From Methanobacteriota archaeon (lineage in GTDB: Archaea > Thermoplasmatota > Thermoplasmata > SG8-5 > JAGLSY01), in assembly GCA_020697715.1 (NCBI GenBank), contig JAEHCO010000011.1, positions 1 to 20,780 on the forward strand: 20,780 nt of DNA, written 5' to 3'. Position numbers and translations under genes: made by a program. A model generated the notes under the pieces. That model did no database searches. It was not told the DNA's origin and saw only the letters and a program-made list of their open reading frames with translations. This document shows, in pieces, positions 9,903-13,032 of this stretch (positions are counted from its first letter, which is position 1; each line of letters starts with the position of its first letter).

Positions 9903-11336
9903 CTACAATTCCTTCTCAGTGAAGAAAGCACTGTATGCTTTGTATGTATTGTAGATATCTGCCTTGCTCGCGATCTCGAAAGGCGAGTGCATGCCTATGA
10001 GAGCTGGACCGCAGTCAATGGTATCAATACTGTTCTCCGCGATGAACCTGGCAACAGTACCACCGCCGCCCTCGTCGACCTTACCCAGTTGGGCATACTG
10101 CCATGGGACATTGTTCTTGTTGAAGAGGTTGCGTACCTGTCCAGTGAACTCCGCCGAGGCATCGTTAGCTCCGCCTTTTCCACGGGCTCCACCGTACTTA
10201 CAAATGACAATTCCGTGCCCCATCCTGGCCGAGTTTTGGGCCTCGTGGACTTCCTTGAAATTGGGCTGCATAGCGACATCGACATCTCCAGACAGGCAAT
10301 AACCATTGGAAATGGCCATTTTAAGAGTGGAGTATTTGAATCCAGGGGTCAATCTCTCCATCAGCATGATGAAGGACAGTTCGAGATAATTGGATTGGGC
10401 GCCAGTTGCTCCCACGCTGCCTATCTCCTCTTTGTCGAAGAAGTAAGCGATACTCGTGTACTCTGGTGATTTGACATCCATGATGGCTCTGAAGGACGTG
10501 TAGGCGCAGGCACGGTCGTCCTGACCGTATGCTCCTATCATGCTCCTGTCCAGACCGATATCGCGGGGGTTCATTGCGGGAACCGCCTCCAATTCAGCAC
10601 TTACCAGGTCCTCTTCGGTAATACCATACTTGTCATTCAGTATCTTCAAGATATTGAGTTTCAGCTTCTCTTTTGCCTCTTTCTCGGTCTTCAGGGGCAT
10701 ATGGCCGGCCAGGATCCTCAATTCCTCGCCACGGATCCCGTCAAAGATCTTCCTGTCGCCCTGAGCCTTGTGAGCCAGATGAGGCAGGAGATCAGATATT
10801 ACAAAGGCTGGATCATCCTCGCCCTCGCCAATATTGATCTTCACTGTCTTACCAGTGGATGTGACCACGACACCATGGATGGCCAGAGGGATGTTCACCC
10901 ACTGGTACTTCTTGATGCCGCCGTAGTAATGTGTCTTGAATATTGCAAGCTCTATGTCAGAGTCCTCATACAGAGGCTTCTGCTTCAGATCGATGCGTGG
11001 GCTGTCAACATGGCTGGCTACCAGGCGATAGCCATCGGTGAGAGGCTTCTTTCCAATGACCGCCATGCACATGGTCTTGTTGCGGTTGACCATGTAGACC
11101 TTGTCGCCAGTTTTCAGCTTCTTGACCTTATTGATGTCCTTGAAGCCAGCCTTTGCAGCCTGGGCCACAAAAGCATCGACAACTTCCCGCTCGGTCTTAT
11201 TGACCTTCAGGAACTCTTTATAATCATCCGAAAAATCAAAAGTTGCCTTGACGGCCTTCTTGTCTGCGTCGTTCCAGTAGCTCTCTGTCTTAAGTGTTAA
11301 TTTCTTCTCCAATGAGGATTCTGATTTCTTTGCCAT
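9903..11336 (-). CDS. M18 family aminopeptidase (aminopeptidase I / ApeA type)
   Basis: Metal-ligand motifs SHVDSP, QDDR, EEIGS, GDV, GMHSP plus HYYGGIKKYQW. Confidence 0.92.
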   Translation of the reverse strand: MAKKSESSLEKKLTLKTESYWNDADKKAVKATFDFSDDYKEFLKVNKTEREVVDAFVAQAAKAGFKDINKVKKLKTGDKVYMVNRNKTMCMAVIGKKPLTDGYRLVASHVDSPRIDLKQKPLYEDSDIELAIFKTHYYGGIKKYQWVNIPLAIHGVVVTSTGKTVKINIGEGEDDPAFVISDLLPHLAHKAQGDRKIFDGIRGEELRILAGHMPLKTEKEAKEKLKLNILKILNDKYGITEEDLVSAELEAVPAMNPRDIGLDRSMIGAYGQDDRACAYTSFRAIMDVKSPEYTSIAYFFDKEEIGSVGATGAQSNYLELSFIMLMERLTPGFKYSTLKMAISNGYCLSGDVDVAMQPNFKEVHEAQNSARMGHGIVICKYGGARGKGGANDASAEFTGQVRNLFNKNNVPWQYAQLGKVDEGGGGTVARFIAENSIDTIDCGPALIGMHSPFEIASKADIYNTYKAYSAFFTEKEL

Positions 11337-11497
11337 TACCTACACCCCTGTAAATTATGTATGGTACCCCCAAGTATATAGAGTATTTATCGGTTTTCCC
11401 AAGAAAGCAGTAACGATTGTGTAAGTTGTGCAGAGAAATACAATGGAAATTAGACTGCTCTGATATGTGATCTTGAACATCTGAATAACGCAGATGT

Positions 11498-11577
11498 CCA
11501 ATCAGTACTCAAGATCTTCATCACGGAACAATCGGCATGCGCCAATAGTTCTCAGCAAGAGTTCAATCATCACAGAA
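11498..11577 (-). ncRNA. Box C/D methylation-guide sRNA
   Basis: Minus strand: C GUGAUGA (11573-11567), 11-nt guide UUGAACUCUUG, D' CUGA (11555-11552), hairpin spacer, C' GUGAUGA (11524-11518), 12-nt guide AGAUCUUGAGUA, D CUGA (11505-11502). TATA-like TTTTAATA at 11603-11596 is correctly spaced. Confidence 0.9.
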
Positions 11578-11624
11578 TCACTAATTCCAATTCATTATTA
11601 AAATCCTTTGTATGGAATTAGTGA
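11578..11624 (-). promoter_or_regulatory. sRNA promoter enclosed by a 12-bp perfect inverted repeat
   Basis: TCACTAATTCCA (11578-11589) / TGGAATTAGTGA (11613-11624) flank minus-strand CAAAGGA-TTTTAATA. Confidence 0.65.
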
Positions 11625-11637
11625 ATCTGCTCGTGTA

Positions 11638-11713
11638 GGCCATATCCTATTAATGCGGCGTCATGGGCGCCGCATCACTTTGCTGATTCTTCTTACGGAT
11701 ACGGCGGTATTCT
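11638..11713 (-). ncRNA. Putative structured RNA motif A, copy 1
   Basis: AGAAUACC-GCCGUAUCC..GAAGAAUCAGCA-[hairpin AUGCGGCG/CGCCGCAU]-GGAUAUGGC-C; homologous to 11776-11849 and 18074-18146. Confidence 0.55.
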
Positions 11714-11775
11714 TTCTGATTAATTCCAATTCATTATTAAAATCCTTTGTATGGAATTAGTGAATCTGCTCATGT

Positions 11776-11849
11776 GGCCATATCCTATCTGCGCGGCGTT
11801 ATGATCGCCGCATCACTTTACTGAATTATCTTACGGATACGGCAGTCTT
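11776..11849 (-). ncRNA. Putative structured RNA motif A, copy 2
   Basis: Same GCCGUAUCC/GGAUAUGGC stem and GCGGCG/CGCCGC hairpin; begins directly after the tmk stop. Confidence 0.5.
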
Positions 11850-12473
11850 TTAGTGCTGATGTTTAAAGCTTTCCTCAAGAATATCCTGTATATCAGCCAG
11901 CACCTTCTCAGCTGGCTGTCTCGCATTTATGATCCTCATACGGCCCTCGGTCTTCGCTATCCTGAGATAATTGGCTCGCACTTTTTCCAAATAATTATGC
12001 TTCTCGAACTTGGAGAGCTCCTCCCTGACCTTCAGGCGCTCCAGGGATGTCTCCGGGTCTATGTCGAGAAGGAATGTGATGTCTGGCTCGCGGATGACCG
12101 TGCTGTTCATCTGTGTTATCCAGTCCACCGAGTCGATGCCTTGCTTGGCCAGTAGTTCCTCAAGTGCCTCGCCCTGATAAGCGGTACTGGAATCACAATA
12201 CCGGTCAGAGATAACTACCTGACCGTCAGCCAGCTTCTTTTCCATGTCAAGCGTATGGGTCGCTCTGTCGGCCAAGAACAAGAAAACTTCGGTGTAGGGA
12301 CTGATCTCCTCGGTGTAGCTTCGGCGGACCGCCTGGCCCAGCCAGCTTTCCGAAGGCTCGAGGGTCAGGTACACTTCATGGCCCTTGGACTCAAGAATAC
12401 GGGCCAGTTCTTTTGAGGCCGTGCTCTTCCCACAGCCATCGATGCCTTCCAGAGTTATGAATAAGCCTGCCAT
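11850..12473 (-). CDS. tmk: Thymidylate (dTMP) kinase
   Basis: FITLEGIDGCGKST P-loop, FLADR, SDRY..S..AYQG, PD..FLLD. Start moved to ATG 12473 (MAGLFITLEG), which removes the overlap with the upstream ORF. Confidence 0.95.
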   Translation of the reverse strand: MAGLFITLEGIDGCGKSTASKELARILESKGHEVYLTLEPSESWLGQAVRRSYTEEISPYTEVFLFLADRATHTLDMEKKLADGQVVISDRYCDSSTAYQGEALEELLAKQGIDSVDWITQMNSTVIREPDITFLLDIDPETSLERLKVREELSKFEKHNYLEKVRANYLRIAKTEGRMRIINARQPAEKVLADIQDILEESFKHQH

Positions 12474-12537
12474 CAGGCTGGGAAAGGCCTGATGGTCAAA
12501 ATAGTTTGCGATTTTATTTTGCTCGGTCGTTCCCTTT

Positions 12538-13032
12538 TTAAACGGCAGGAGGCATTTCAAAGCAATCTTGTCCATTAATGAGAATTGATAAATTGTCAGG
12601 AAGCCAGATTAATTCGATTGTGTATTCTTCACCAGGAATTAAACCGGAGATTTCAAGATAATCTCCGGTATTTAATTCATAGCCAGCAGGGTAGTGATCA
12701 ACTAAAACAACAGTGACATTTGAATTCGATGATTCCACAATTGTGCAATTGGAATTGTGGTCTTCTGTAAATATGAATTCAGCTTGCTGGATATCACTTT
12801 TTAATCTCATCAATATTTCATCTGATTTGAATGGACCAGTAAAAAAATCATTCCCGAACTCTATTTTTGCCTCTGTTGGAGATGTCGTTTCAATACTGTT
12901 GAACCAATACCCTCCATCACCTACTGACTCATCGCTTGGCCAGAATACAATTAATAACGCAATTAGAATAACACAAACAATAATAATGAGAAATACTGGC
13001 TTCTTCATTTTGCCTACAGCCTTTTGTTCCAT
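12538..13032 (-). CDS. Small N-terminally anchored membrane protein with a beta-rich, possibly pilin-like, outer domain
   Basis: Basic N-terminus then hydrophobic VFLIIIVCVILIALLIVFW; C-terminal LNTGDYLEISGLIPGEEYTIELIW; GGAGTGA RBS. Confidence 0.7.
   Translation of the reverse strand: MEQKAVGKMKKPVFLIIIVCVILIALLIVFWPSDESVGDGGYWFNSIETTSPTEAKIEFGNDFFTGPFKSDEILMRLKSDIQQAEFIFTEDHNSNCTIVESSNSNVTVVLVDHYPAGYELNTGDYLEISGLIPGEEYTIELIWLPDNLSILINGQDCFEMPPAV

Follow-up and report, generated by a model that had tools for sequence, protein, structure and literature searches.

The minus strand of the window (the whole stretch of 20,780 nucleotides analysed here, on contig C2) carries, from 11577 to 11498, an intergenic gene for a box C/D sRNA that is, judging from its boxes, its guides and its homologues, a real and conserved archaeal guide RNA and that appears to be independently transcribed. 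We consider it probable that this sRNA is the core of a ribonucleoprotein (RNP) that would convert the wobble nucleotide of tRNA-Leu(CAA) to Cm34 by means of its D guide, that its D′ arm has partners both in helix 89 of the 23S rRNA and in the intron of tRNA-Leu(UAA), and that the two arms together would clamp the precursor of tRNA-Leu(UAA).

The host genome, from a member of the Thermoplasmata, is a metagenome-assembled genome (MAG) of 2.12 Mb in 34 contigs with a completeness of 93.8%. The sRNA gene sits in a gap of 513 nt between two open reading frames, both on the minus strand, that encode an M18 aminopeptidase (9903-11336) and a thymidylate kinase (11850-12575). In the direction of transcription, it consists of a box C (GUGAUGA, 11573-11567), a D′ guide of 11 nt (11566-11556), a box D′ (CUGA, 11555-11552), a D′-C′ spacer of 28 nt (11551-11524), a box C′ (UGAUGA, 11523-11518), a D guide of 12 nt (11517-11506), and a box D (CUGA, 11505-11502). 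The four perfect boxes and the guides of 11 and 12 nt given in the preliminary description are all found on this strand. The architecture is the one expected of an archaeal box C/D sRNA: a box C of the form RUGAUGA is near the 5′ end and a CUGA box D is near the 3′ end, the internal D′ and C′ boxes go with guides in the range of ~10-12 nt, and the complementarity to a stable RNA, for which at least 9-10 bp are expected, brings a sensible nucleotide, C34 of tRNA-Leu(CAA), to the N+5 position. The protein machinery is encoded in the same genome, with fibrillarin at 230.9 bits, Nop5 at 202 bits, and an L7Ae-family protein at 98 bits. The fibrillarin and Nop5 genes are not adjacent but on separate contigs (C11:109132-109743 and C22:65604-66239).

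A TATA-like box, UUUUAAUA, is located ~28 nt upstream of the sRNA (11596-11603, minus strand), with a purine-rich AAAGGA ahead of it, and the block as a whole (11596..11609) is a probable promoter. In 23 homologues, the AT fraction reaches a peak of 0.85 at -31 to -26 before box C and has values of 0.52-0.72 in counting intervals that start outside -33 to -29. Both this peak and UUUUAAUA fit an archaeal TATA box, with transcription probably starting just before box C; a start at 1-4 nt before box C is likely. A TFIIB gene is also present in the window. Among public sequencing runs, none of RNA was listed for this stretch, and one DNA run contained a small share of its sequence words. A 7-bp hairpin, which was found by eye 4 nt past box D (11477..11497, minus strand) and which is seen, again by eye, in several homologues, possibly marks the 3′ end or acts as a terminator. 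The fold of the window gives no evident terminal stem flanking boxes C and D.

The surroundings of this promoter have features of their own. The TATA-like box is flanked by a 17-nt inverted repeat (11573-11589 and 11613-11629, 94% complementary), so the 5′ leader of the sRNA could pair upstream of its own promoter. Between the stop codon of the thymidylate kinase gene and the sRNA, there are two tandem units of ~138 nt (11582-11849, minus strand), each with an H/ACA-like hairpin RNA of ~75 nt, in which the lower stem has 9 bp, the upper stem is GC-rich, an internal loop lies between the two, and an ACA comes after the lower stem. After each of these hairpins the same TATA-like promoter block recurs, and related units also precede the sRNA in all three congeners. 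A search of three rRNA sequences from relatives gave no convincing pseudouridylation target for these units, and they had no match in Rfam.

The long hairpin spacer noticed at the outset proved to be a conserved feature of this RNA. The 28 nt between boxes D′ and C′ contain a 26-nt hairpin (11526..11551, minus strand) with stems of 4 + 6 bp and a GCAU loop. Among the homologues, the spacers have differing sequences and are 10-97 nt long, and in 18 of 23 they fold into a hairpin that starts at the first nucleotide after box D′ and leaves exactly 2 nt before box C′. Since the hairpin has the geometry of a K-turn, the long spacer constitutes a conserved structural variant; going by the folds, boxes C′ and D′ form a true K-turn, whose canonical stem is closed, and not a K-loop.

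The D guide had been assigned to C34 of tRNA-Leu(CAA), and the tRNA gene itself bears out this assignment. The exact 11-mer complement of the D guide occurs at two sites in the genome, namely the opposite strand of the sRNA gene and C11:45895-45905; the latter, which is the sole exact complement outside the sRNA gene in the whole genome, is the anticodon arm of tRNA-Leu(CAA). The gene for this tRNA (133 nt, C11:45813-45945) has the anticodon stem AUAGA/UCUAU and the loop CUCAAGA, and it carries ACUCAAGAUCU, the sequence on which the assignment had been made to depend. The guide forms 11 bp with the tRNA from A31 to U41, and C34 faces the fifth nucleotide of the guide, counted upstream from box D. 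In the unedited genome, both ARAGORN and the Rfam tRNA model miss this gene because of an intron of ~49 nt in the D-loop, and ARAGORN calls the tRNA after these ~49 nt have been removed in silico. (In a relative, G004, tRNA-Leu(CAA) has insertions in both the D-loop and the T-loop.) A failure of tRNA finders to detect a target gene, as with this D-loop intron, would wrongly refute predictions of guides. The core of the D guide is invariant in most homologues, and the 11-mer in the tRNA is widely kept in the class. Position 34 of tRNA-Leu(CAA) and of tRNA-Leu(UAA) is a predicted target of C/D sRNAs in Pyrococcus, according to PMC7994747 and PMC7668247. On the basis of its complementarity and conservation, it is very probable that the RNA belongs to a genuine C/D sRNP that would make Cm34 in tRNA-Leu(CAA).

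The target of the D′ guide had been sought either in a tRNA T-arm or in domain V of the 23S rRNA, and it is the second of these that held. Domain V contains CAAGAGUUCAU, which is far ahead of any other match and pairs at 10 of 11 positions in a congener (G003) and at 11 of 12 in an order-level relative (G010). We take CAAGAGUUCAU to be the 5′ strand of helix 89, corresponding to C2467-U2477 of E. coli, with N+5 falling on the equivalent of A2471. The T-arm, on the other hand, found no support: the best fit in the T-arm of tRNA-Leu(CAA), made by eye, is 7/11, with N+5 at no known site. A 5S rRNA gene is present in the assembly (C22:213949-214070, Rfam 96.1 bits). Neither 16S nor 23S rRNA was found in it, so the match to helix 89 rests on relatives. 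Among these, the exact 11-mer CAAGAGUUCAU is present in 15 of the 21 23S sequences read, and the base at the A-to-G position of the D′ target is A in all 24 sequences (the 21 plus three from family f22). In f22, the D′ guide is ACGGACUCUUG, and it pairs by hand with the f22 variant of helix 89 through nine Watson-Crick pairs and one G.U. The D′ guides of f17, f19, and f8 differ, and inspection by eye gave no clear partner for them; in f6, no 23S rRNA was found in any of the five genomes.

The length of the D′ guide varies in close relatives (11, 12, or 13 nt), which shifts the distance between the pairing and box D′ by 1-2 nt. As a consequence, the predicted site moves among the equivalents of A2471, G2470, and A2469, and this argues that it is the pairing rather than a fixed D′ methylation that is conserved.

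Two further elements were encountered around the helix 89 sequence. Directly after CAAGAGUUCAU, at the tip of the helix, there is an insertion of ~38-60 nt in 8 of the 21 relatives, which is absent from the other 13 (the loci with the insertion include L168 in G003, L169 in G010, L171-L174, L180, and L185). It is probably an rRNA intron, and no clear bulge-helix-bulge motif appears in its minimum-free-energy fold. The other element is a dispersed, genus-specific repeat of ~135 nt (C22:213695-213802, C11:42487-42624, and others), with 16 BLAST matches in the host genome and 18 in G003; in the 61 genomes searched, no other genus has any. At four or more sites, this repeat or a related element forms a hairpin with a GC stem and a helix 89-like loop, CARGAGUUCAACGA, which is complementary to the D′ guide at 11/11 in one copy and, in three others, through 10 Watson-Crick pairs and a G.U. 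The only 11/11 match to the D′ guide (C22:213770-213780) is in such a loop, and it was regarded as a less likely target because the repeat is limited to one genus and the guide is much older.

A second partner for both arms is found in tRNA-Leu(UAA). Its gene (C11:675676-675802) has an anticodon-loop intron of 42 nt with the junction ACUUAAG|AUCU. On the precursor, the D guide can form ten Watson-Crick pairs plus a G.U at U34, over a stretch that extends from A31 to the fourth nucleotide of the intron. The intron contains CAAGAGUUCA (C11:675728-675738), 8 nt past the D site, which pairs with the D′ guide at 10/11. With one mismatch or less, the D′ target is found at ~46 sites elsewhere in the genome, and simple arithmetic gives an expectation of ~4e-4 for an intron of 42 nt. 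As far as the sequence goes, then, the two sites on the precursor are neighbouring targets, being 8 nt apart here and 6-9 nt apart in relatives, where ~100 nt would be close enough. 

The intron aligns over its full length across f1, f4, and f6. Approximately 41 intron-bearing tRNA-Leu(UAA) genes have the motif AAGRGUYC, by eye 6-9 nt after the fourth intron nucleotide, with flanks that vary; they belong to f1 (four), f4 (six of nine), f6 (five), f18 (16), and f23 (10). (The count was made on 81 entries, of which the remainder were motif-less introns or false matches in intron-less tRNAs, and one of which comes from the unpublished genome G301, on which no claim is built.) The three f4 genomes with motif-less introns are ones in which no sRNA was detected. 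In some genomes the intron has the motif and no sRNA was found, all of these being incomplete assemblies. When paired by eye, the 5′ and 3′ parts of the intron put the motif into a hairpin loop, and minimum-free-energy folding gives the stem only for short, motif-poor introns. The intron of tRNA-Leu(UAA) in G004 (L146) opens with a near copy of the D-guide sequence, which together with the anticodon loop makes up a near-palindrome that has GATC at its centre.

The D′ guide and the intron also vary together. Both were recovered from 22 genomes, and in every one of these the D′ guide scores higher against the native intron than against shuffled versions of it (individual P values of 0 to 0.054). 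At position 11 of the guide, a change of G to A accompanies a change of C to U in the intron in G004, G019, and G020, with a G.U intermediate in G001, G023, and G048; the pairing in G004 is 11/11. At position 7, a change of U to C accompanies A to G in the intron in G023, G048, and f18 (GACCCUU in the guide and AAGGGUC in the intron). At places where the rRNA has another sequence than the intron, it is the intron that the guide matches better: the guide of G020 has an A that pairs with the U of the intron and faces a C in helix 89, and that of G056 has a score of 8.5 with its own intron versus 7.0 with its own helix 89. Only a small number of substitutions, in lineages that are related, underlie these co-variations; where the guide changes from U to C, a tolerated G.U becomes a G-C and no mismatch is rescued; comparisons between families reveal little specificity among f1, f4, and f6; and the f18 guide pairs with its intron at only 7-9 of 11 positions. 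On this evidence, we think it somewhat probable that the pairing of the D′ guide with the intron is functional. As to which D′ partner would matter in the host genome, helix 89 or the intron, we infer it from the sequences.

The following mechanism would accommodate these observations. The sRNA would assemble with L7Ae, Nop5, and fibrillarin into a methylation-guide RNP, the D arm of which would pair with the anticodon arm of tRNA-Leu(CAA), position the wobble C34, and give Cm34. The D′ arm would recognise AAGRGUYC at two places, the 5′ strand of helix 89 and the loop of the intron hairpin of tRNA-Leu(UAA). Both arms could then clamp a single molecule of pre-tRNA-Leu(UAA), with the D arm covering A31 to intron nucleotide 4 and the D′ arm on the tag in the intron. 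On this precursor the order would be 5′-D site, 6-9 nt, D′ site-3′, and the linker would have to bridge box C′ to box D′, which are presumably held together in the K-turn, making the arrangement topologically reasonable. Such a clamp would most likely serve to bring the RNP to the precursor while this is still unspliced, and there it would either lead to Um34 or help with folding and ordering before splicing.

Methylation is disfavoured when the target nucleotide is in a non-Watson-Crick pair, and the G.U at U34 counts for this reason against a methylation of U34. That the clamp yields Um34 in spite of this G.U is a possibility we hold only tentatively. We are equally reserved about the wider idea that the intron of tRNA-Leu(UAA) has been kept because it offers the second arm of the guide a docking tag resembling helix 89, which might make the modification of U34, or the handling of the precursor, dependent on the intron and would require it to be done before splicing.

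Another possibility is that the pairing of the two arms serves as a chaperone or a timer, holding open the region of the anticodon and the intron or delaying splicing; U34 would then stay unmethylated, and Cm34 of tRNA-Leu(CAA) would be the sole tRNA methylation. This is what the G.U at the target pair and the variable register of the D′ guide would lead one to expect, and no guide with an A opposite U34 was found in the host genome or among the 27 sites listed in 61 relatives. Nm34 on both tRNA-Leu(CAA) and tRNA-Leu(UAA) is, however, widespread elsewhere, where it is made by TrmL in bacteria and by Trm7 in yeast. Together with the guide that Pyrococcus has for position 34 of tRNA-Leu(UAA), as reported in the summary of PMC7994747, this means that some route to Um34 is to be expected, which speaks against a chaperone or timer. 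In its favour, Dennis et al. (2015) propose in PMC4644070 that a double guide whose target position is mismatched binds its RNA and leaves it unmethylated. All in all, we regard this alternative as rather improbable, if well worth keeping in view.

A further alternative is that the D′ arm serves helix 89 only, for a methylation near the equivalent of A2471 or for the folding of the rRNA, with the motif in the intron as an unrelated look-alike. The sequence of helix 89 that would be its target is exact in most of the 23S sequences read (15/21, as above), domain V is a usual area for archaeal C/D targets according to PMC4644070, and in f22, where no anticodon-loop intron was found in tRNA-Leu(UAA) (0 of 6), the guide still follows the variant of helix 89. 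Against this, the guides of f18 and f6 have a C that stands opposite the A of helix 89 and pairs with a G in the motif of the intron from the same genome (no 23S rRNA having been recovered from f6), the A in the guide of G020 pairs with the U of the intron and not with the C of the rRNA, the register relative to box D′ differs by 1-2 nt from one relative to another, and the motif is kept in an intron that is otherwise variable, at a fixed 6-9 nt from the site of the D guide. An arm confined to helix 89 is, in our opinion, unlikely, and a D′ arm with partners in both the rRNA and the intron is the reading that we prefer.

The existence of the sRNA itself is supported by its distribution. Half units of the form UGAUGA-N9-13-CUGA number 94 in the genome (2.12 Mb, both strands), and pairs of half units 2-80 nt apart number three versus ~0.16 expected by arithmetic from the genome counts. 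The C′-guide-D half, with two mismatches or less, is present in 24 of 61 related genomes versus 0/61 for the reversed control, and, of 401 genomes sampled from the class, 58 contain a pattern for the whole RNA versus 0 for the control. The families in which the whole-RNA pattern was found are f1, f4, f6, f8, f17, f18 (32/44), f19, and f22 (6/6); a further copy in f23 has a degenerate C′ box and escapes this pattern. Using BLAST, the sRNA was found in all three congeners and parts of it in other families. Wherever something was not found among the relatives, the incompleteness of MAGs bears on the result. In the congener G003 (L032, C11 ~72974-73116), an insertion of ~99 nt lies between two identical 22-nt copies of the C′-guide-D segment of the sRNA.

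The preliminary description had named a search of Rfam as a check. It brought weak C/D matches, beside spurious ones at E up to 10, and no family at the gathering score in the window: sR2 scored 17.1 bits, U54 17.5 bits, and sR3 10.9 bits, versus cut-offs of ~40 (36-42). That the boxes are a chance arrangement or an unexpressed relic, as this absence of a match at the gathering score and of a terminal stem might suggest, is highly improbable, given that at least eight families share the boxes, the D guide, the position of the hairpin, and the upstream TATA-like box, and that the controls gave 0.

How does this sRNA compare with known systems? A C/D guide for Nm34 of leucine tRNAs is known already: Clouet d'Orval et al. 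(2001), as summarised in PMC7994747, predicted guides for position 34 of the leucine tRNAs of Pyrococcus, and the present sRNA is like these in being free-standing, in having the wobble nucleotide at N+5, and in depending on the same protein machinery. It differs from them in three respects, namely a shared D guide, a hairpin-closed K-turn, and a second guide that is not an orphan. Firstly, Pyrococcus has separate sRNAs for each leucine tRNA, going by the summary in PMC7994747, whereas here a single D guide fits tRNA-Leu(CAA) perfectly and tRNA-Leu(UAA) via a G.U. Secondly, the C′/D′ motif of the Pyrococcus sRNAs is given in the same summary as a K-loop, whereas here it is a K-turn closed by a hairpin. 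Thirdly, sRNAs directed to tRNAs usually have one guide that lacks a target, going by PMC7994747, which summarises such a finding by Lui et al. (2018), whereas here the second guide has partners in helix 89 and in the intron of tRNA-Leu(UAA). The method of Lui et al. scanned mature sequences only (PMC6009581).

The guide in the intron of euryarchaeal pre-tRNA-Trp, known from Haloferax and as sR50 from Pyrococcus, resembles the present case in that it concerns position 34, an intron-containing precursor, and duplexes in which the intron takes part. There, however, the guide is the intron, whereas here the guide is a separate gene and the intron of tRNA-Leu(UAA) is without C/D boxes and carries only a tag on the side of the target. 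Indeed, no pair of half units of the form C-N9-13-D was found at the tRNA-Leu(UAA) locus, and the sRNA is intergenic on contig C2 while both leucine tRNA genes are on contig C11, so it is not an intron-encoded guide of the pre-tRNA-Trp type.

With the archaeal double-guide sRNAs that Dennis et al. (2015, PMC4644070) propose as RNA chaperones, the sRNA shares two guides that can pair a few nucleotides apart on one RNA, one of them with a non-Watson-Crick pair at the methylation position. Their substrate is rRNA, at neighbouring sites, whereas here it would be a pre-tRNA bearing an intron. A trans-acting guide has also been proposed to act on a pre-tRNA in the Sulfolobales, where H/ACA sRNAs are proposed to guide pseudouridine 35 of the intron-containing pre-tRNA-Tyr (PMC2651775); those guides are of the H/ACA class and of a different chemistry, whereas the present one is of the C/D class. 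Among publications viewed by title and the opening of the abstract, none was found that describes a trans-acting C/D guide with its second arm on a tRNA intron, an absence that is not proof.

What the analysis adds to the first reading of this locus is the helix 89 partner of the D′ guide, an intron partner that is equally good (10/11 each), and the K-turn hairpin. Guides for wobble methylation are known from a few hyperthermophiles, and the present one is from the Thermoplasmata, a class rarely treated in the cited literature on C/D sRNAs. If the proposed clamp is correct, some guides considered to be orphans would be explained, and surveys limited to mature sequences (PMC6009581) would be blind to targets in introns. 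A conserved archaeal tRNA intron would acquire a function that can be tested, and a trans-acting C/D RNP would be reading an intron as part of its substrate.
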